Assembly: GCA_000998135.1 (NCBI GenBank)
Contig: LCCV01000009.1
Location: 1-60,035 of the forward strand
DNA length: 60,035 nt
Direction of reading: 5' to 3'
Origin: Parcubacteria group bacterium GW2011_GWA2_42_14
GTDB lineage: Bacteria > Patescibacteriota > Minisyncoccia > Sungbacterales > GWA2-42-14
The notes under the pieces are model-generated. The model worked only from the letters and a program-made list of their open reading frames with translations, made no database searches and was not told the DNA's origin. Made by a program: the position numbers and the translations under genes. The stretch's first letter is position 1. Each line of letters begins with the position of its first letter. Of this stretch, positions 2,483-43,239 are shown piece by piece.

Positions 2483-2683
2483 TCTCGCAGGAGCGAGAAA
2501 AAATACCAAATTTAGTATAGAGCAGGTAATAAATATAAGGGCGTATGGTGGATGCCTAGGGATATCGAGGCGATGAAGGACGTTGCGTGCCTGCGATAAG
2601 CTACGGGGAGGTGGCAAGCAACCTTTGATCCGTAGATTTCCGAATGGGGAAACCCCGCCGTGCAAAACACGGTGACCGAGCAC

Positions 2684-3033
2684 TCATTTTTGGACTATAA
2701 AAAACCAGCATATATTAGCTGGTTTACTTTCGAACCGAATTTCTATTGTTATGCAATTTGTATAATTTTGCACAAATTAAGAGTATAACAATGTATAGTA
2801 TAGGAATTGGGTATAGTATTAGATTAACTATGGTATAAATTTTTCTGCCAAATGGTACATGAAAAAAATCACAGATTGATGATTCTGTAGAAATTCCTAC
2901 CAAAATACAAAGTAACAAACCTAGTATATATAACACAAACAAAGTGATTAGCATGAAAGTCTCCTGTTTTTTGTGCAAAGTTCTTATTAGAGAGTAGCAA
3001 ATATATCAATAAATGTCAAGAGTCCAAAAATGA
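2684..3033 (+). other. 23S intervening sequence IVS-1 (helix-tip insertion, domain I)
   Basis: Flanked by perfect 19-bp inverted arms gagcactcatttttggact (2678-2696) and agtccaaaaatgagtgctc (3021-3039). It lies between the conserved ccgaatggggaaacc and gaaacatctcagta blocks. Confidence 0.85.
2724..2954 (-). CDS. small membrane protein (76 aa, two hydrophobic segments), antisense to 23S
   Basis: AGGAG (2961-2965) sits 6 nt upstream of the ATG at 2954. TTGACA (3014-3019), 17 nt, TACTCT (2991-2996) form a promoter. The terminator hairpin accagc/gctggt plus T-run (2698-2723) sits right after the stop. The track ORF start at 2978 lies upstream of the SD. Confidence 0.6.
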   Translation of the reverse strand: MLITLFVLYILGLLLCILVGISTESSICDFFHVPFGRKIYTIVNLILYPIPILYIVILLICAKLYKLHNNRNSVRK

Positions 3034-3087
3034 GTGCTCGGAGCGTACCCGCTGAAGTGAAACATCTCAGTAAGCGGAGGAAAATAA

Positions 3088-3203
3088 AAAAATGCTTCGC
3101 ATTTTTTTCGCAGAATAAGCAGACAGTACGCTGAATTACGCAGAATTTTTCTGCGTATTTCTGCGTTTCTTCTGCGAATTTCTGCGAAGGGAATGCGCAG
3201 CGC
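3088..3203 (+). other. 23S IVS-2: ORF-less periodic-word hairpin (CGCAG / CTGCG words)
   Basis: Inserted between ggaggaaaataaa and attcccttagtagcggcgagcg. The arms are cgcagaa... and ttctgcg repeated every 10-11 nt around acgcagaatttttctgcgt. Confidence 0.75.
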
Positions 3204-3714
3204 ATTCCCTTAGTAGCGGCGAGCGAAAAGGGATCAGCCTAGATTGAGCATTTTTCAGATTATATCAAAAAATTTGCTTGAAGTTATAAGACATGATTAT
3301 GGTTTAATCCGAGAGGGAAGCGTTATATTAGAAGAACGGTCCTGGAAAGGCCGGCCAAAGCGGGTAATAGCCCCGTATTCGAAAATTTAAACGCACTCTT
3401 TATCATGTTCTTGAGTACTGCCCCGTATGAAGTCTGGGCAGGAAGTAGGCGGAACTAGACCGCCAAGGCTAAATACTCGATGTCACCGATAGTGAACCAG
3501 TACCGTGAGGGAAAGGTGAAAAGTAGCCCGTTTAGGGCAGTGAAATAGTACCTGAAACCATACGTTTACAAGGAGACAACGCCCGAAACCCGCAAGGGTT
3601 TTTAGGGCTATGTCGTGCCTATTGAAGAATGAGCCAACGAGTTCTTGGATTCTACTCGTTTAAGTGCCCAACGGCACAAAAGCATAGCGAAAGCGAGTGT
3701 TAATAGCGCGTTTT

Positions 3715-3998
3715 AGTTCTTAGTTTTTAGGTGTCAGATTTTAGATTATTAAAAAAACCAGAAAGTGTCTGGCTTAGTTAGGCATATCGCCTTTGATTAT
3801 GATCACATACAAGGCGTTACCGAAAGTTAAGATTGTTGCAGATAGGAAAAGAACAAAAAATCCGTTGATGAGATATTCGATCGGGATGCAGATCATTCGT
3901 GGATTCTCCAATGAAAACGAACTATGCTGATATATTAACAAATATAATTTAAAAGTCAAGTAGTCTAGAATCTGGCACCTATCAACTATGAACTATAG
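3715..3998 (+). other. 23S IVS-3 (long-stem insertion, domain II)
   Basis: Lies between gcgaaagcgagtgttaatagcgcg and aaagacccgaaacc. The imperfect arms are agttcttagtttttaggtgtcagattttagatt and agtctagaatctggcacctatcaactatgaact. Confidence 0.75.
3774..3896 (-). CDS. 40-aa hydrophobic peptide, antisense to 23S
   Basis: MICIPIEYLINGFFVLFLSATILTFGNALYVIIIKGDMPN. GGAGAA (3904-3909) is 7 nt from the ATG. TTGACT (3954-3959), 16 nt, TAATAT (3932-3937) form a promoter. The terminator is ccaga/tctgg plus T7 (3751-3773). The track start at 3959 would lie upstream of the predicted TSS. Confidence 0.55.
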   Translation of the reverse strand: MICIPIEYLINGFFVLFLSATILTFGNALYVIIIKGDMPN

Positions 3999-4406
3999 GT
4001 AGAATTCAAAAGACCCGAAACCTCGTGAGCTTACCATGAGCAGGTTGAACCCCTGAGAAATCAGGGGGGAGGACCGAACCGGTTGGTCGTGCAACGCCTT
4101 CGGATGACTTGTGGTAAGGAGTGAAAAGCTAATCGAACGAGGAAATAGCTGGTTCTCTCCGAAATAGTTTTTGGACTAGCCTCGGATCACGCTCCGCGGT
4201 ACATGAGGGGAAGAGCCCAGACCATAAACTAAGGTCCCCAAATCTATGTTAAGTGGCAAAGGTGGTGGAAATTCTCAAACAGCAAGGAGGTTGGCTTAGA
4301 AGCAGCCATCCTTTAAAGAGTGCGTAACAGCTCACTTGTCAAGAGTTTCTGCGCCTAAAATTTAACGGGGCTAAACATAGTACCGAAGTTATGGGTGTCG
4401 TGCCTC

Positions 4407-4517
4407 ACTCGTGTGAGGCACGCGCGGACGGTCGCGGACTGGACGCGGAAGGTCGCAGAATTTTTCTGCGTAATTCCGCGTTAGTTCTGCGCGTTCAGCG
4501 CGTGACTCGCAGTAGCG
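4407..4517 (+). other. 23S IVS-4 in helix 45 (classical IVS site): ORF-less periodic-word hairpin
   Basis: Inserted in the hairpin gtgtcgtgcctc...gaggcacgacgc that follows ggggctaaacatagtaccgaag. The arms are built of gcgg/gcag and ctgcg/ccgcg words. Confidence 0.75.
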
Positions 4518-5072
4518 AGGCACGACGCGGTAGGAGAGCATTTCAAACGCAGTGAAGGTTGACCCGCGAGGGCAACTGGAGTGTTTGGAAGAGAGAATGT
4601 TGGCACAAGTAACCACAAGACAGGTGAAAACCCTGTCCGCCGAAAACCCAAGGTTTCCTTGGCAATGCCAATCATCCAAGGTTTAGTCGGCCCTAAGGCC
4701 ATGGCGAAAGCCGTAACCGATGGACAGCTGGTTAATATTCCAGCACTGTTTTACGCATCGATGGCGTGACGGAGCAAAGTATATTAAGCATATTATTGGA
4801 TTTATGTTCGTGTCTTAAGGATTGAGCGTAGGCAAATCCGCGCTCGGGGGTTATGCCCGAATCCAAATGAAGCGAAAATCATGCGGGGCAACCCAATTGA
4901 AATTTAATAAAGCTTGCTTCCCAGAAAAACGTCTAAGATTATGCGTAAAGCAACCGTACCGGAAACCGACACAGGTGGGTTGGTCGAGTAGACTAAGGCG
5001 AACGAGTGAGTCTTCGTTAAGGAACTAGGCAAAAAAGCAGCCGTAAGTTCGCAATATGGCTTGCCCGGCACC

Positions 5073-5391
5073 TTTTGGATTATGACAAATAAAAAATGCT
5101 CCCCAAGAAGGGAGCGAATGCGAGAGGACTAACCCAATTTACCGGGGACTCTCGTAATATGAGGAATTTCAGCGATTACTTTGAGGAGTTTTTTTCCAGA
5201 ACCCCTTTTTGTGAGAAGTTCGCGGGCGATTTTATTGTTGTCTGCGTCATCTGCGTGGAAAAGATCTTCTAATTGTCCATTTCTATTTTCAATTATGTAT
5301 TGACAATTCATTAGATTTCTCCGCGGTAATGTGGATTGGAACTAACTCCAGCATAAGTTAAAATTATTATTTGTCAAGTCGTAATTCAAAA
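5073..5391 (+). other. 23S IVS-5 (helix-tip insertion, domain IV)
   Basis: Arms caccttttggattatgacaaata and tatttgtcaagtcgtaattcaaaaggtg lie between ccgtaagttcgcaatatggc and ggctgcaacaaaag...accaaaaacacag. Confidence 0.8.
5129..5311 (-). CDS. 60-aa hydrophilic protein, antisense to 23S
   Basis: GGAGAA (5317-5322) is 5 nt from the ATG. TTGACA (5373-5378), 16 nt, TATGCT (5351-5356) form a promoter. The terminator is gctccc/gggagc plus T-run (5092-5116). Confidence 0.5.
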   Translation of the reverse strand: MNCQYIIENRNGQLEDLFHADDADNNKIARELLTKRGSGKKLLKVIAEIPHITRVPGKLG

Positions 5392-5415
5392 GGTGCTGGG
5401 CTGCAACAAAAGTAC

Positions 5416-5446
<31 letters not shown>

Positions 5447-5601
5447 CCTGCTAACTCGTAAGAGGATGTATAGGGGCTGACGCCTGACCGATGCGGGAAG
5501 GTTAAGCATTGTTGTTATGGGATTGAGATTATATCAATGTTTTATAGCGCATGATGCCAAGCCCCCGTCAATGTCAGCAATAACTATAATTGTTCTAAGG
5601 T

Positions 5602-6352
5602 GAATTATGTTGCCTTAGTAAAATCTGGCTATATCGGTGAACACCTCATTATGCGAGACACATAGTGAGACAATACCGAGGGAAGTCGCCTGCTCAAATT
5701 TTTAAACTTTTATTTAAATTATTAAAAGAAAAACCCACACGGATTAAATCATGTGTGGGTGCAATCTATGAGGTTTGGGCTTAAACGAGCTTAAACTTTG
5801 TGCCTAAGTACCAGAATAGCCTTATCTCCTTTTTTTGACCTTGGAAGACCGTGAAGTCCAAATGGAGCCGTATCAAACTGGTCAACATAAAGCGGACTAT
5901 CATAAGAGCTTGGAATAAGGTCGCTCATTAACCGCAATGCTGTTACTTCCCTATCTGTGCGAGCAAACATTACGATTTTCAAAGATGGTTTGTTGACTCG
6001 AATTCGATATGACAGCCTCATGCCAATCCTCCTTTTAGGATAGTTGTGTTATGCTAACAATAGCATATTGAAAAAGAATTGTCAAGAGTTTAAAAATTTG
6101 AGCGGGTTGACCCCGTAGAGACTACACGCTGGATCGAGCACCTTTCATGTTCGGAATTTGTATGCGGTTTGCAAACATTACAGATGTTAAGTAACTGCAT
6201 CAAAAAATTTCAATGTGAGAAAGGTGCTCGAAAGATATAGTCCGAACTCCATGGCGACATGGAGAGCTAAGCAGAAATGACTTAGCCAGTAACATTCCGC
6301 GACTGTCCGCGTTAAGTCCGCGTATGTCTGCGGTTGTTATAGTAACAACATG
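5602..6352 (+). mobile_element. group I intron A at E. coli-equivalent site about 1931
   Basis: Exon joins as ctaaggt|agcgcaattcc (E. coli CUAAGGU|AGCGAAAUUCC). The 5' exon ends in U and the intron ends in G. It has the core element aagatatagtccgaac and shared blocks atatcggtg, ataccgagggaagt and accccgtagagact. Confidence 0.8.
5791..6021 (-). CDS. 76-aa protein of unknown function, antisense, inside a loop of intron A
   Basis: AGGAGG (6028-6033) is 6 nt from the ATG. TTGACA (6080-6085), 17 nt, TATTGT (6057-6062) form a promoter. The terminator is cccacac/gtgtggg plus T-run (5727-5760). The cassette is closed by the stem gctcaaatttttaaac / gtttaaaaatttgagc. Confidence 0.55.
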   Translation of the reverse strand: MRLSYRIRVNKPSLKIVMFARTDREVTALRLMSDLIPSSYDSPLYVDQFDTAPFGLHGLPRSKKGDKAILVLRHKV

Positions 6353-6529
6353 AGCGCAATTCCTTTTCGGGTAAGTTCCGAAGCGCACGAAAGGCGTAAC
6401 GACTGGAGGACTGTCTCAACGAAGAGCTCGGTGAAAATACAATGCCGGTGAAGATGCCGGCTACCTGCAGTTAGACGAAAAGACCCCGGGAGCTTTACTG
6501 TAGCTTGATATTGGGTCTAGGAACACCGC

Positions 6530-6733
6530 TTTTTCTACAAAATTAAAATGCCGCATAAAGCGGCAATGGATTAAACAAAAAATGGCCAAATGACGAGAGG
6601 AATAAGAAAAATTACCACTGCAAAAATTGTCATAGCATCTAGGACGATCATTTTCTATCCCCTCGCGATTCTTATAAAAGGCCTAAGAAAAGTTTAATCC
6701 AAAAGACATTTATTGTCAATGTTTGCAGAAAAA
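6530..6733 (+). other. 23S IVS-6 (helix-tip insertion, domain V 5' part)
   Basis: Arms caccgctttttctacaaa (6524-6541) and tttgcagaaaaagcggtg (6722-6739) lie between gctttactgtagcttgatattgg and gacagtgtctggtgggcagtttg. Confidence 0.8.
6571..6651 (-). CDS. 26-aa hydrophobic peptide, antisense to 23S (below ORF-track cutoff)
   Basis: MIVLDAMTIFAVVIFLIPLVIWPFFV. GAGGGG (6659-6664) is 7 nt from the ATG. TTGACA (6714-6719), 17 nt, TAAACT (6691-6696) form a promoter. The terminator is gccgc/gcggc plus T-run (6545-6564). Confidence 0.5.
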   Translation of the reverse strand: MIVLDAMTIFAVVIFLIPLVIWPFFV

Positions 6734-6940
6734 GCGGTGAAACCTGATTGAGACAGTGTCTGGTGGGCAGTTTGTTTGGGGCGAAATTCTCCTAAAAAGT
6801 AACGGAGAAGTCCAAAGGTCAGCTTAAGACGGATGGAAACCGTCTGTGACGTGTAAAGGCAAAAGCTGGCTTAACTCCGAGGCGGACATGCCGAGGAGAT
6901 ACGAAAGTATGGCTTAGTGAACCGATGGCCATGTCTTGTT

Positions 6941-7058
6941 TTCGACAAGACCGCAGAATAACGCAGACAGCACGCGGAAGGTCGCAGAATTTTTTCTGCG
7001 TAATTCTGCGTCAGTTCTGCGAGTGTCTGCGATCTTGCGGAAGCAAGATACTTACTAG
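6941..7058 (+). other. 23S IVS-7: ORF-less periodic-word hairpin
   Basis: Inserted in the hairpin cttgtt...aacaag between gtgaaccgatggcc and ggccaaagattaacggataaaag. Its core of about 50 nt (6972-7021) is nearly identical to 4443-4491. Confidence 0.75.
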
Positions 7059-7074
7059 AACAAGGCCAAAGATT

Positions 7075-7111
<37 letters not shown>

Positions 7112-7150
7112 GCTTCCAAGAGTCCATATCGACGAAGCGGATCGGCACCT

Positions 7151-7749
7151 TGAACATATCGGGGTGCTATGCCAGTAATGGCATACCTGGGAATATTTGG
7201 AGAATATTCCAAAATAAAAATCTCGCTAATATCGGTGAAGTTCTATTGAATTTTGAACCAATTTTGATAGGATAATACCGAGGGAAGTTATTTTTTCTCT
7301 TATAGGTCGAATAGTTATTATTTACTTAACCAAGTTTACTTTTATGGGAATAGAGTCATGGCCAAAGCCGTTTCAAGAACGGCCGGCAGATTTTATAGAA
7401 ATAGAAGAGGAAGAAAGGCGACGGGAGAAAGAAAGAATAAAAAGAGAAAAAGAATTACAAAAAGAAAAAGAAAAGCCCAACCCTCTTCTTAATAAAGAAA
7501 GAGTAAAAGAAGAACTGGAGAAACTGGAGAAAGAAGAAAAAAAATAACCCCGTAGAGACTTTAATCTGATTCATTCAGATTAGGATATTTTGCTTTTAGC
7601 AAAATATAATACGCGAGCCCCTAATTCCGTTGTAAGCGGAACGGGTGAAGATATAGTCCATGCCTCTAGTAATAGAGGAAGTTTCGTAATTTCTGCGTGA
7701 TTCCGCGTTAATTCCGCGTGAGTCCGCGGTTTTGCGAAGCAAAACATAC
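7151..7749 (+). mobile_element. group I intron B at about site 2500 (boundaries +/-3 nt)
   Basis: Splits ggcacct | cgatgtcggctc (E. coli GGCACCU|CGAUGUCGG). It shares atatcggtgaag, gataataccgagggaagtt, aaccccgtagagact and ggtgaagatatagtcc with introns A and C. I could not place a canonical terminal G. Confidence 0.65.
7344..7547 (+). CDS. 67-aa Glu/Lys-rich ORF in a loop of intron B (sense)
   Basis: ORF fills the segment between ccgagggaagt and accccgtagagact. It has no clear SD, and the low-complexity EEEERRREKERIKREKELQKEKEK may be non-coding. Confidence 0.3.
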   Translation: MGIESWPKPFQERPADFIEIEEEERRREKERIKREKELQKEKEKPNPLLNKERVKEELEKLEKEEKK

Positions 7750-10657: not shown

Positions 10658-10776
10658 TGCTGGTGTTTTATTAAGATGTGCCCCACCTGATCCCTTTCCG
10701 AACTCAGAAGTGAAAGCGTCTTAATCCGATGATACTCGGACCCAATCCGGTCCCGGGAAAGTAGGATACGCCAGCA
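10658..10776 (+). rRNA. rrf: 5S rRNA
   Basis: ccccacctgatccctttccgaactcagaagtgaaagc...gggaaagtaggatacgccagc matches the 5S consensus. The terminal helix is gctggtg / cgccagc. Confidence 0.9.
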
Positions 10777-10809
10777 TACAAAAAATTTTTAAAAACATGA
10801 TTCATTTAT

Positions 10810-37432: not shown

Positions 37433-37504
37433 GCCACCCTAGCTCAGCGGCAGAGCAACTGTTTTGTAAACAGTAGGTCCCCGGTTCGAATCCGGGGGGT
37501 GGCT
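37433..37504 (+). tRNA. tRNA-Thr (anticodon TGT)
   Basis: Hand-folded cloverleaf: gccaccc/gggtggc acceptor, gctc/gagc D stem, actgt-tttgtaa-acagt anticodon arm, cccgg-ttcgaat-ccggg T arm. No CCA is encoded. Confidence 0.9.
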
Positions 37505-37581
37505 TTGGCAAAATTTTATAAATATCGGGATAAACAGAATATCGAGGGGTCAGATTCCCTCTACCGGCTGAAAAAATTCTT

Positions 37582-37665
37582 GCGCAGGTGGCAGAGTGGT
37601 CAATTGCATCGCGCTGTAGACGCGACGCCCTTTGGGCTCCGGGGGTTCGAATCCCTCCCTGCGCA
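37582..37665 (+). tRNA. tRNA-Tyr (anticodon GTA), long variable arm
   Basis: gcgcagg/cctgcgc acceptor, tcgcg-ctgtaga-cgcga anticodon arm, 16-nt variable arm, ggggg-ttcgaat-ccctc T arm. A terminator hairpin follows at 37675-37702. Confidence 0.9.
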
Positions 37666-37998
37666 ATTAGAAATTTTTACCAATCCTTATGGTTGGTAAA
37701 AATTTGTATTTGTCGTTGGAGGGATTCGAACCGCGAGGAAAAGGTAATGTTATTACTTTTTCCGAGAGTGGATTTTGCCGAGAAGGCAAAATCGAATTTT
37801 GCTCGCACAAAATTCCAGGGCATCTATTTTAGTATTTTTTGGAGAGCGCCCGTCGCAAGCTATAGCTTGCGACCCCTCCCTACCTGTTATTACACCTGAA
37901 TCGGCGAATATTTTTTCAGATAATTTGATATAACAAATTGTGACCTCAAAATGATGGGAAAAACCAAAAAAGAGAATCGGTTTTAGTAAAAAGTAAAA

Positions 37999-38013
37999 AT
38001 CTCTCCCTGCGCA
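37999..38013 (+). repeat. direct repeat of the tRNA-Tyr 3' end (14/15 nt)
   Basis: atctctccctgcgca compared with atccctccctgcgca at 37651-37665. A third partial copy cccctccct lies at 37874-37882, and an inverted T-arm copy ggagggattcgaacc at 37718-37732. Confidence 0.65.
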
Positions 38014-38038: not shown

Positions 38039-39019
38039 ATGACGTCACCAACGCAATTAAACGATGGAATTAACTATACTGCTTTGGTAACGCAGCATCC
38101 TTGGGTTACAGCAAGAGACCAAAAGTGTATTTTAAGCCCTGATAGTGATGGTCTGCTTTGTGGGTTGTTTATGTCATACTATTTGGATTGGAAAATTCAT
38201 GGTTTTTACGACGGAAAAATTCTTGCTGTAAAACAAGGGACCGATATTGAGGACTGTATTTTTTTAGACATGGAAATATTTCGTCCTAACATTCGCAGCG
38301 TTGGCCAACACATGGTTATGTATGACAAAAAGGATTTGCCTCCCAACTGGAATAATTTTAAGAAGTGTATCTCGGCAAATAATTTGAGAGATTACGATTT
38401 TAAAAATAATTTTAAACTCAAATATCCATTTGGAACAATTCATATTTTGCTTTCTATTTTGGGACAAAACAGGAATATCCCTATTCCCAAAAGCGCAATA
38501 AGCCCATTGTTGTATACGGATGGGACTTTCAAGAGCCAATTTAACTATCCAGAAAATTGCTTAAGCTGGCTAAATTTTTTAGGCGCGGGTAGTTCAAACA
38601 ACCCTCTTCAAAGGGTTTTTCTAAACAAGCACTATTCCACATATGAATTAATGGTAGAACTTAAAGATTTATTTTCAAAAATTAATGTCATTGGAGGAGG
38701 AAAGCGTGGCGGCGATAAAATAAAAATTTCCGATTCGCGCGGAAATATTGCAAATATTGATCCCCGGTCTCACCAGTTAAGGGTAGAGACAAAGACACAA
38801 GCTGAGAATTTTCTTGGAATGCTCGCGAACAAAACAGGATGGTCGTTTACGCCCTCACATTGGTCGTGGGGTCCATATAAGATTAATCGATTTAAGAAGG
38901 GTAGTATAAAACCAGGAAAGGCCCGTTATAACACCCTTCTCGCTCAAAACCCAATATCTCTCGCGATTATCAGCCGAAATAGTATCGAATACACTATAGA
39001 CGAAGGCGGAGTATTCTAA
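38039..39019 (+). CDS. hypothetical protein; candidate restriction-endonuclease partner of the adjacent methyltransferase
   Basis: 326-aa ORF with no motif I can assign. Its stop codon overlaps the stop codon of the convergent MTase gene (39016-39019). Acidic clusters ILSPDSDGLL and FLDMEIF could be catalytic. Confidence 0.35.
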   Translation: MTSPTQLNDGINYTALVTQHPWVTARDQKCILSPDSDGLLCGLFMSYYLDWKIHGFYDGKILAVKQGTDIEDCIFLDMEIFRPNIRSVGQHMVMYDKKDLPPNWNNFKKCISANNLRDYDFKNNFKLKYPFGTIHILLSILGQNRNIPIPKSAISPLLYTDGTFKSQFNYPENCLSWLNFLGAGSSNNPLQRVFLNKHYSTYELMVELKDLFSKINVIGGGKRGGDKIKISDSRGNIANIDPRSHQLRVETKTQAENFLGMLANKTGWSFTPSHWSWGPYKINRFKKGSIKPGKARYNTLLAQNPISLAIISRNSIEYTIDEGGVF

Positions 39020-40470
39020 AGTAATTTGCTTTGTGATGCCAGAATGCACTCTTCTTTCATGCGTTTTTCTGCAATTGCGCAATATTCTGGTGCAACATCA
39101 ATACCGATGTATTTATACCCAAGATTTTTTGCTGCGACAATTGTGGTTCCGCTTCCAACAAAAGGATCAAGTACCACTCCGTTTTTCGGCGCAAAACAAC
39201 TGATAAAATCATATGGGAGCTGATTTGGAAAAGTAGCGGGGTGTTGATGCTTAAGACGACTTCCATCGCCAGCCGTAAGATACTCCCAAATCGTTCCACG
39301 ACATTTCATTGGGTTAATTTTGATAGAACGAGTCGCTATTCGAACGCCATTTGTAAGACGAGTTCCACCTCCCGTCATGGTCTTGCCCCCATGTTTCGAG
39401 GGGATCTTTAGGTGCTCTTTATTGAAATATGTCGGCCTATCGCCTTTCAAAAATACAGGAATATACTCATGGTCTACACGAAATCGCTTGTTCCACCATG
39501 CCCCCTCTGCCCCATACTTTCGATAAATCACCGTTTCAAAAAGCTTGAAATTGAAACTATCACACCAATCAATAATCGTCCTAAACGAGGTTAAAGACTT
39601 CCCAAAATTTTTTGTCTGATCTTGAATTACCATTACGGCTACTCCGCCATCTTTGAGAACGCGATATATTTCTTTGCCTGCTGAATGTAAATCAAGAGAA
39701 AATCCCTTATAGTCACGAACACTATCATACGGCGGTGAAGTAACTACAATATCCACCGAATTTGAAGGGAATTTTTTCATTACTTCAACCGTATCCCCGC
39801 AAATAATTTTATTCAATGGCAATTCTTTATATTTTTCGCTTTCTTTATATTCAGGAAACTGGATTATTGATTTTGTTTCCTCCCGTATAACATCAAGAAC
39901 TATTCCTTGTATTGAAACATCCCGGCCGTTTCGAAAAATAAGCGGTTCCATAGTTTTGTTCGCCGGTTGTAGGCGGATATACCCCATCTCTTTATAGAAT
40001 TTTTTTAGTGTCGCTTCGTGGTTATTTATAAGGGCTACCACCTTTTGTCCGTTTTCGGCAGTTTCCTGTTGGCGCACTAAAACAACATCGCCGTCATTTA
40101 TATTTTCATCAATCATACTGTTTCCGACTACACGGAGAGCATAAACTTCTGAAGAAGAAGGAATTTTGCTTTTTGGAACGGCAATCATTTCTTTATCTTG
40201 AATTGCTTCAATGGGTTGCCCCGCCGCAATAGTTCCTAAAAGAGGAATTTTTATCATTGTCTCGCGGCCAAGCACCTCAATAGAACGAGGTTTATTTTCT
40301 TCTTTTGACAAATATCCTAAATCACGAAGTTTGGAAACATGAAAATGAGCCGTTGAGACCGATGAAAGTTTTAATTTCTTGCGTATCTCATGAAGTGAGG
40401 GGGCATATCCTTTTTGTTCTTGATAAGCGGTTATAAAATCAATCGCTTGTTTTTGCCTTTTTGTAATCAT
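39016..40470 (-). CDS. full-length LexA repressor fused to a beta-class (N4-C/N6-A) DNA methyltransferase
   Basis: N-terminal LexA wHTH (ITKRQKQAIDFITAYQEQKGYAPSLHEIRKKL..SSVSTAHFHVSKLRDLGYL), Ala-Gly cleavage site (GTIAAGQP), and S24 dyad (VVGNSM ... ATLKKF). The MTase part has motif IV VVTSPPYDS (39727-39741) placed before motif I LDPFVGSGTT (39146-39169). The start is set at MITKRQ (40470). Confidence 0.8.
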   Translation of the reverse strand: MITKRQKQAIDFITAYQEQKGYAPSLHEIRKKLKLSSVSTAHFHVSKLRDLGYLSKEENKPRSIEVLGRETMIKIPLLGTIAAGQPIEAIQDKEMIAVPKSKIPSSSEVYALRVVGNSMIDENINDGDVVLVRQQETAENGQKVVALINNHEATLKKFYKEMGYIRLQPANKTMEPLIFRNGRDVSIQGIVLDVIREETKSIIQFPEYKESEKYKELPLNKIICGDTVEVMKKFPSNSVDIVVTSPPYDSVRDYKGFSLDLHSAGKEIYRVLKDGGVAVMVIQDQTKNFGKSLTSFRTIIDWCDSFNFKLFETVIYRKYGAEGAWWNKRFRVDHEYIPVFLKGDRPTYFNKEHLKIPSKHGGKTMTGGGTRLTNGVRIATRSIKINPMKCRGTIWEYLTAGDGSRLKHQHPATFPNQLPYDFISCFAPKNGVVLDPFVGSGTTIVAAKNLGYKYIGIDVAPEYCAIAEKRMKEECILASQSKLL

Positions 40471-40476
40471 ACTGAT

Positions 40477-40504
40477 ATTATAGAAAATAAATCGAAAGTG
40501 TAAA
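40477..40504 (-). promoter_or_regulatory. promoter of the LexA-MTase gene; predicts a leaderless mRNA
   Basis: On the minus strand TTTACA, 16 nt, TATAAT, with the -10 ending 6 nt before the ATG. A perfect DnaA-box-like TTATCCACA lies at 40512-40520. Confidence 0.5.
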
Positions 40505-40596
40505 AGTAAAGTTATCCACAATATCCATGAGAGTAATGACTCCTATATCAAAAACGCGCGCTTTAAAAACGCGGGTTTTTGTTATATAATAGGTAA

Positions 40597-43121: not shown

Positions 43122-43237
43122 AAAGTGGCGCATTTATCCATTTCCATATTTGAATATATGCTTAAAGTGGTTTATAATATAATTAAAGTGGTTAGAAGTG
43201 GATAACACTGTTGATAAGTTAAAGGAACTGTGGATAA
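43122..43237 (+). promoter_or_regulatory. mraZ promoter with AAAGTGG direct repeats (candidate MraZ operators) and DnaA-box-like sites
   Basis: TTGAAT (43150-43155), 17 nt, TATAAT (43173-43178). aaagtgg occurs at 43122, 43164 and 43185, and gaagtgg at 43195. The plus strand reads gtggataac at 43198-43206 (complement gTTATCCAC) and tgtggataa at 43229-43237 (complement TTATCCACA). Confidence 0.5.
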
Positions 43238-43239
43238 GT

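Follow-up and report, generated by a model that had tools for sequence, protein, structure and literature searches.

A Complete LexA Repressor Fused to a DNA Methyltransferase at a Probable Type II Restriction-Modification Locus of a Parcubacteria Genome

Introduction

The type II DNA methyltransferases (MTases) M.SsoII, M.Ecl18kI, M.EcoRII, M.MspI, and M.ScrFIA carry an N-terminal helix-turn-helix (HTH) autoregulator, and in M.SsoII, M.EcoRII, and M.MspI the N-terminal HTH represses the enzyme's own gene. Self-repression of this kind is proposed here for a gene of Parcubacteria group bacterium GW2011_GWA2_42_14, which lies on contig LCCV01000009.1 within the 60,035-nucleotide (nt) stretch that was analyzed (hereafter, the window). 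Its N-terminal module differs from those HTH segments, however, in being a complete LexA, with S24 domain, Ala-Gly bond, and Ser/Lys dyad, and in serving nine MTase families; because the S24 autoprotease is complete, repression should be reversible by a RecA signal. The locus is probably a type II restriction-modification (R-M) system in which the methylase is fused to a complete Patescibacterial LexA, its autoregulation is tied to the SOS response, and a convergent gene of 326 amino acids (aa) provides the endonuclease; we hold this reading with moderate confidence.

The fusion is like canonical LexA (TIGR00498) in domain order, catalytic residues, equivalog score, and a predicted autoregulated promoter, but it differs in its C-terminal 270-aa DNA MTase and in the near-exclusive linkage of its close relatives to restriction genes. 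A second point of comparison is provided by R-M systems under the control of a C protein, such as PvuII, AhdI, Esp1396I, and Csp231I (summarized in PMC12255303). Loci homologous to the one described here resemble these in carrying a 79-aa HTH_3 gene and palindromic C-boxes upstream of the endonuclease (R) gene. The copy in the window differs in having no C gene, whereas the full loci differ in an apparent dual control, LexA acting on the methylase (M) gene and C protein on R, with the C gene and lexA as the two arms. Finally, CapH/CapP, CapW/BrxR, and CapK/CapS are DNA-damage-responsive regulators of immune operons (bioRxiv 10.1101/2022.04.27.489752, PMC11662680, PMC13373217). They follow the same logic, a repressor at a defence locus that is inactivated by damage or single-stranded DNA (ssDNA), but they are dedicated, separate proteins, whereas here the classical SOS repressor is covalently joined to the defence enzyme. 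No LexA-methyltransferase fusion was found in the searchable literature, including recent work on damage-responsive immune-operon regulators. The locus combines three known things, autoregulatory HTH-MTases, C-protein control, and LexA, and this combination did not appear in that literature.

Results

The Fusion Gene

The features of the fusion gene, all on the minus strand, are as follows.

39016..40470, minus strand: coding sequence of the LexA-MTase fusion, 484 aa from the ATG, with three Pfam domains in one open reading frame (ORF); stop codon at 39016-39018
40285..40467, minus strand: LexA winged HTH (wHTH), residues 2-62, recognition helix SVSTAHFHVSKL; PF01726, E = 9.4e-14, 51.4 bits (cut-off 23.7)
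39898..40245, minus strand: Peptidase_S24 autoprotease/dimerisation domain, residues 76-191; PF00717, E = 2e-29, 102 bits; aligned to 3k2z, 1jhh, and 7b5g
40219..40224, minus strand: Ala83-Gly84, the bond at which self-cleavage is predicted; counterpart of E. coli A84-G85 in the alignment
40117..40119, minus strand: Ser118, the predicted nucleophile, in GNSM; aligned with E. coli LexA S119
40003..40005, minus strand: Lys156, the predicted general base, in TLKK; aligned with E. coli LexA K156
39820..39882, minus strand: linker of ~20 aa between S24 and MTase, residues ~197-217; predicted local confidence (pLDDT) below 50 at residues 197-214; site of the identity break in mosaics
39019..39819, minus strand: beta-class N4/N6 DNA MTase domain; N6_N4_Mtase (PF01555), residues 239-469, E = 1.5e-39, 136.7 bits
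39727-39738, minus strand: MTase motif IV, SPPY, residues 245-248
39145-39162, minus strand: MTase motif I, FVGSGT, residues 437-442

The fusion is a genuine, conserved single gene with a complete LexA. A preliminary description of the window had proposed, from the sequence alone, that a full-length LexA was joined without a stop to an MTase, and had named the wHTH, the AAG cleavage site, and the Ser and Lys of the protease as landmarks. All of this is borne out: there is one 484-aa ORF; the LexA_DNA_bind, Peptidase_S24, and N6_N4_Mtase profiles score far above their cut-offs; and Pfam, TIGR00498, and the phmmer alignment agree on the landmarks. With the NCBIfam lexA equivalog model TIGR00498, the protein reaches 187.1 bits (cut-off 110.95). 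In the phmmer alignment with E. coli LexA chains, IAAGQP/VAAGEP, GNSM/GMSM, and TLKK/TVKR pair up, and both Ser and Lys align with the E. coli dyad. The best solved relative of residues 1-197 is Thermotoga LexA (3k2z, E = 1e-34). An AlphaFold2 model of the whole fusion was poor (pLDDT 59.5) and served only to mark the low-confidence linker. The ORF as listed reaches a TTG at 40521, but the start was taken as the ATG because homologues all begin M-[IVL]-TKRQ.

All three domains recur together in more than 120 protein clusters (72-100% identity, ~476-501 aa), all from Patescibacteria metagenome-assembled genomes, where PGAP and database names call the protein only "(transcriptional repressor) LexA" or "adenine methyltransferase". 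A scan of GTDB species genomes gave 216 loci encoding relatives of the fusion, and the best 80 of the 216 were kept; in 70/70 complete or near-complete fusion ORFs among them the Ala-Gly bond, Ser, Lys, and motif IV are retained. The same residues are kept at 80 loci from a metagenome search (see below), except in five contig-end fragments that do not reach motif IV. Overall, Ala-Gly, Ser, and Lys are invariant across ~150 fusions whose LexA parts are 52-93% identical to that of the window.

The MTase was assigned to the beta class, as had been proposed, because motif IV (SPPY) lies N-terminal to motif I (FVGSGT). Its nearest solved relatives, TTHA0409, the N4-cytosine MTase N4CMT, and M.PvuII (SPPF), all share SPP[YF], which is suggestive of N4-cytosine specificity. 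Palindrome avoidance in the window and in pooled loci gave no specific candidate for the recognition site. GATC is the most under-represented 4-bp palindrome in the window (67 versus 162 expected, z = -7.4), but depletion of GATC and GGCC is common to all pooled Patescibacterial loci and therefore cannot be assigned to this R-M system. GGATCC occurs 0 times in the window against 5.1 expected, a depletion that is not specific in the pooled loci.

Promoter and Predicted Operator

40477..40504, minus strand: sigma-70-type promoter TTTACA-16-TATAAT, 11/12 match; the -10 ends 6 nt before the ATG; layout conserved
40480..40497, minus strand: predicted LexA operator TTTCGAT-N4-TTTCTAT, a direct repeat of 11-bp period that fills the -35/-10 spacer and overlaps the -10
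40512..40520, plus strand: DnaA-box consensus TTATCCACA (TGTGGATAA on the gene strand), at about -50 from the ATG

The 50 nt before the ATG are conserved, in order, as TGTGGATAAC, a -35 hexamer, TTTCKAT-N4-TTTCTAT, TATAAT, six nucleotides, and the ATG. Retention of this layout across homologous loci is not due to chance and supports the leaderless-type promoter that had been described earlier; the ATG being only 6 nt past the -10 suggests that the lexA-MTase mRNA is leaderless. A palindromic operator had been anticipated between 40471 and 40560, but what was found instead is a TTC-N7-TTC direct repeat within the promoter, which almost every locus has between -35 and -10. When 757 kb were scanned with a regular expression for the operator, 65 of the sites lay at lexA promoters and 7 lay elsewhere. 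The window has a single perfect operator, the next best site having three mismatches, and within these 60 kb no regulon of the fusion LexA was seen beyond its own gene.

The strongest evidence for reading the direct repeat as the LexA operator is its co-variation with the recognition helix. Both half-sites change together between lineages, and each version is paired with its own helix: TTCKAT with STAHFH, TTCGGT with STIHQH, TTCGGG with STIHEH, and GCTCGGG with STAHEH or STTHEH. The repeat is accordingly predicted to be the LexA operator. Its TTC-N7-TTC form shares the 11-bp period of the GTTC-N7-GTTC operator of Alphaproteobacteria LexA, and in one lineage (L030) the repeat is GTTC-N7-GTTC itself. 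Binding of LexA to direct repeats has been documented, and the Patescibacterial LexA is cited as an example (PMC8565304; PMC7739468, citing Sanchez-Osuna et al. 2017).

The box upstream of the promoter, which the preliminary description had singled out, is likewise conserved and not a chance occurrence. G[TG]GGATAA lies within 160 nt upstream of lexA in 60/69 non-redundant loci, mostly at -50, and elsewhere in these loci occurs at chance frequency; moreover, nucleotide homology between loci begins at the TTATCCACA box, which forms the first base of the conserved module. The box stays invariant while the LexA operator diverges, which argues that it is bound by a different, universally conserved protein. 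Its sequence equals the consensus DnaA box, and DnaA is thus the obvious candidate for the binding protein. The exact 9-mer TGTGGATAA is present three times in the window (0.5 expected), and three DnaA-box-like elements (AGTGGATAAC, TGTTGATAAG, and TGTGGATAAG) lie at 43198-43238, ~75-115 nt upstream of the mraZ-rsmH division operon. A terminator-like hairpin with a T-run (CGCGTTTTTAAAGCGCG CGTTTTTGAT; 40557-40573, minus strand) closely precedes the lexA-MTase promoter and may act as an insulator, a role considered because no gene lies upstream of the hairpin on that strand. A divergent promoter-like site for a permease gene is at 40562-40590 on the plus strand.

One LexA Module and Nine Methyltransferase Families

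When 135 non-redundant fusions were clustered at 50% identity, the LexA parts formed one cluster and the MTase parts nine, with motif IV being SPPY in five of the latter, DPPY in three, and DPPF in one. Searching with the separate modules (tblastn) revealed mosaics in which LexA is 85-90% identical while the MTase is only 25-41%, and also the converse (LexA 58-68%, MTase 73-85%). Identity drops sharply past residue ~197 in some families and past the motif IV region in others. Other LexA-MTase families are tightly linked to their own recognizable restriction endonucleases (REases) in the same geometry: a Hpy99I-like Endonuclease_7/His-Me/SH3_17 partner at 21 loci and, with further MTase families, RE_TaqI, BglII, and HNH partners.

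The metagenome search, made with the LexA module alone as the query, returned 80 loci of 79-93% identity. These comprised 66 complete fusions, 8 fusions cut by a contig end, 5 unclassifiable loci, and 1 stand-alone lexA; 74/75 of the classifiable loci are thus MTase fusions and the other (1/75) is a lexA-dpnI operon. In four cases overall, a stand-alone lexA is followed within ~6-22 nt by a gene for a DpnI-family methyl-directed endonuclease. These apparent operons are at L085 6001-7412, L087 6001-7414, L164 3001-4423, and L169 4001-5435; their lexA genes encode 211-213 aa, 76-86% identical to the module of the window, behind the same box-plus-direct-repeat promoter. There is also a plainer stand-alone lexA, 68% identical, that has no R-M neighbor. 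Judged by gene neighborhoods, an entire clade of LexA is given over to restriction systems.

It might nonetheless be supposed that the fusion is the organism's SOS master repressor, possibly its only one, and that R-M cargo was captured at the 3' end of lexA; the gene would then be a reliable, self-contained, autoregulated site at which the MTase hitch-hikes or makes the R-M system hard to lose. The equivalog score of the LexA part, the PGAP label "transcriptional repressor LexA" on fusions, and the existence of stand-alone lexA genes, 68-88% identical, with the same promoter, box, and operator all fit this idea. Close relatives of the LexA module, however, are tied to restriction genes at 75/75 classifiable loci, the flanking genes are different in each genome examined, and a second operator was not seen anywhere in the 60 kb. 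In addition, LexA modules are 85-90% identical across candidate phyla that are nominally distant (by record titles), which is easier to reconcile with a mobile module than with vertical inheritance of a housekeeping regulator. We regard a role as SOS master repressor as unlikely, though still deserving some weight; it is compatible with an SOS-tied R-M system and the two are not mutually exclusive.

A second possibility is that LexA is no more than a portable DNA-binding and dimerization module for autoregulation of the MTase, its cleavage being unused and uncoupled from SOS. Versions of the same MTase family with only a ~70-aa LexA-like wHTH and no S24 domain do keep the box and the repeats, and the same M-R pair also exists unfused. 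The retention of Ala-Gly, Ser, and Lys in all ~150 fusions, over a 52-93% range of LexA identity, is otherwise hard to explain and argues for selection for cleavage; this second possibility is considered improbable. The wHTH-only versions are L051, L052, L068 (e.g., L068 519-1607), L071, and L072, each behind the TGTGGATAAC box; L051 and L072 have two wHTH-MTase genes in tandem.

One more distant relative comes from IMG/VR (L088 773-9039), where a LexA-MTase fusion of 44% identity, with motif DLPY and a convergent 305-aa gene, adjoins a type III-like res/mod pair; that this contig is viral, as labeled, is doubtful. A phage origin for the fusion is not supported: no INPHARED phage has the full fusion, and the single IMG/VR match resembles a defence island with type III R-M.

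The 326-Amino-Acid Partner Gene

38039..39019, plus strand: putative restriction endonuclease of an undescribed family, 326 aa, with invariant D35, D37, D77, E79, Q90, H91, and D161
39016..39019, both genes: CTAA overlap of the convergent stop codons, 4 nt; the same -4 overlap is found in most homologous loci

The overlap of the two stop codons, first remarked on in the preliminary description, was confirmed as CTAA and recurs at most homologous loci. The pair had been read there as an R-M pair, and this reading gained support, because the partner tracks the MTase family. Where the fused MTase shares 66% identity or more with that of the window, the partner is present, convergent, and usually has the -4 overlap, at 32/33 examined loci (L003 being the exception), and at the examined loci it is absent wherever the MTase belongs to another family. 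It also accompanies an unfused MTase at six loci (L058, L059, L061, L074, L075, and L079). Furthermore, one 623-aa protein (P0307) joins N6_N4_Mtase to the partner domain, and another (P0283) joins an HTH_3 controller to it. A search with the partner gave 953 homologues (E<=0.001), of which the top 120 are 55-100% identical, and many share a contig with a fusion; a profile search gave 547 clusters.

The partner had been said to match no recognized nuclease motif, and Pfam, NCBIfam, and PADLOC were indeed all blank; profile searches of the PDB were also empty, and 28 members searched against Pfam at E<=10 gave no match, DHH included. Its AlphaFold2 model was confident (pLDDT 92.7), but Foldseek matches stayed below significance, with best E values of 4.5e-2 (PDB) and 7.6e-3 (BFVD) and TM scores of ~0.2-0.3. 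A PD-(D/E)xK fold, which had been suggested as something to look for, was not found in these searches of PDB and BFVD. The top matches in both were instead to the DHH superfamily (RecJ, Cdc45, GdpP, and viral DHH phosphohydrolases), a weak signal. The invariant residues of the partner are D35/D37 (in SPDSDG), D77/E79, Q90-H91, and D161, and we infer that their order (DxD, D, QH, D) resembles DHH motifs I-IV. The partner is thus similar to the DHH/RecJ superfamily in its order of acidic and His residues but fails significance by both profile and fold match. The most likely reading is that the partner is a restriction endonuclease from a family not yet described, its fold giving a weak DHH/RecJ-like signal; to our knowledge, no restriction endonuclease has a DHH/RecJ-like fold.

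The blank searches of Pfam, NCBIfam, PADLOC, and PDB sequences would also be expected if the MTase were an orphan, or an epigenetic regulator, beside an unrelated gene that encodes no nuclease, and there are loci where the partner is missing (L003) or split (L004 and L016). That no R-M system exists here is nevertheless very improbable: presence of the partner strictly co-varies with MTase family, both genes overlap by 4 nt, fusion proteins of MTase and partner and of C protein and partner are known, a C-protein gene lies upstream of the partner, and other LexA-MTase families have known REases in the same geometry. In L004 and L016 the partner is broken into two ORFs, probably by a frameshift. 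L003 (9707-13737), where the fusion is without a partner, is a defence-island context, because an RVT_1 reverse transcriptase and HTH pair and a Dcm-type MTase/Vsr cluster adjoin it.

Cassette Architecture and Genomic Context

At 59 loci, a conserved 79-aa HTH_3 (C-protein) gene immediately precedes R, regardless of which endonuclease family R encodes, and the promoter of the HTH_3 gene contains palindromic C-boxes (ATCCCAAAATGGGAT). Loci with unrelated M-R cargo share a promoter and lexA arm of 640-870 nt (81-88% identity), and a second arm of 230-290 nt (77-88% identity) consisting of the C gene and C-boxes. We infer from these alignments that the two arms flank interchangeable M-R cargo and would be open to homologous recombination. 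No homologue of the C gene was found in the window, whose copy of the locus has lost it. The following features lie at that end.

37433-37504: tRNA-Thr
37581-37666: tRNA-Tyr
37998..38013, plus strand: direct copy, matching at 15/16 positions, of the 3' end of tRNA-Tyr (itself at 37650-37665); 26 nt ahead of the partner's ATG

The copy of the tRNA-Tyr 3' end sits where other loci carry the C gene. There is in addition a 40-nt inverted repeat, 83% complementary (37644-37732), in which the 3' end of tRNA-Tyr is matched with an inverted tRNA 3' fragment (37693-37732); it gave a spurious Rfam match to MIR1120. This suggests past recombination at tRNA-Tyr, and the copy and inverted fragment together point to a rearrangement at the C-gene end of this locus. 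The preliminary description had called the position of the locus, next to tRNA genes and a duplicated tRNA 3' end, consistent with an acquired island. Both tRNAs and the 3' copy are real, but integration of an island at the tRNA finds no support, as the repeats (37650-37665 and 37998-38013) enclose only 332 bp and lie outside the R-M genes. Base composition of the locus is unremarkable, with no GC anomaly, and no long unexplained ORF adjoins it, though neighboring ORFs were not searched against families. Mobility is supported by the variable genomic context, flanking genes being different in every genome examined.

Elsewhere in the window, a 23S rRNA match at 2525-7324 spans 4800 nt for a 2925-nt model, with ~1.9 kb of insertions, and a 5S rRNA (10658-10777) lies 3.3 kb downstream of the 23S with ORFs between; 23S insertions and a distant 5S are typical features of bacteria in the candidate phyla radiation. 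The ORF-poor stretch at 55.1-60.0 kb had no tandem repeats and probably belongs to a large minus-strand ORF that leaves the end of the window.

Discussion

That the fusion is an artefact of assembly or annotation, and really two genes, carries a negligible probability: one long-read contig (L171) has LexA and MTase as separate ORFs, yet its neighboring genes are also split, and the artefact is excluded by uninterrupted fusion ORFs in ~135 non-redundant, independent assemblies of 50-100% identity.

The R-M system with an SOS-tied methylase that we favor would work as follows. The fusion would dimerize through its S24 domain, and its wHTH would bind the direct repeat, repressing its own leaderless transcript and holding the MTase at a set level, while the 326-aa protein would serve as the endonuclease. 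RecA-ssDNA filaments, arising from DNA damage, self-restriction, or phage replication, would trigger S24 to cut at Ala83-Gly84. Cleavage would separate the DNA-binding domain from the S24-MTase portion, the promoter would be derepressed, and methylase output would rise. The balance of modification and restriction would thereby be tied to the SOS signal, the likeliest outcome being that repaired or recombined DNA is protected, i.e., restriction alleviation.

Several points weigh against this account. Domain identity, conservation of the catalytic residues, the position and co-variation of the operator, and the R-M partnership were established computationally, whereas four things, the self-cleavage of the fusion protein, its binding to DNA, the base it methylates, and its recognition site, are predictions from the sequence. 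The partner has no recognizable nuclease motif and its fold matches are sub-threshold. Expression of R is unexplained at this locus, because it lacks the C gene. One operator was found in the 60-kb window and none near the R gene, so SOS coupling would be confined to M. Which way the physiological effect would go is also uncertain: induction of the lexA-dpnI operons would raise restriction, not protection. The C-terminal fragment of E. coli LexA is degraded after cleavage and, if similar degradation holds here, cleavage could destabilize the MTase rather than boost it. Finally, a search of the window and of 1.07 Mb of locus DNA turned up neither recA nor uvr or dinB genes.

A bolder combination of these elements seems quite improbable as a whole. 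The arms from lexA to C would be a platform for cassette exchange, RecA-driven cleavage would switch the R/M ratio toward damage-triggered suicide or hyper-restriction, the partner would be the first DHH/RecJ-like REase, and the DnaA box would place the locus under control of replication initiation. Should the S24-MTase fragment be broken down, like the C-terminal fragment of E. coli LexA, the methylase would run short upon DNA damage or phage replication, and the locus would be a suicide or hyper-restriction module.

Three leads follow from the locus. One is a predicted code for LexA operators, based on the co-variation of recognition helix and repeat sequence; another is the partner family of ~550 clusters, a candidate for a new kind of restriction enzyme; and the third is a modular promoter-regulator cassette that could suit engineering. 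The fusion is also a natural test system for the coupling of damage to modification and restriction, with one protein, one operator, one cleavage bond, and a 50-bp promoter. It touches on the long-standing question of how restriction systems spare the host during DNA repair, and on the active one of how DNA damage that accompanies infection activates immune systems, as with CapH/CapP, CapW, and CapK/CapS. The sensing of DNA damage and the restriction of phage DNA appear to be physically coupled here, and the joining of LexA to an MTase has been repeated across nine methylase families in a huge uncultivated radiation that is largely without CRISPR.

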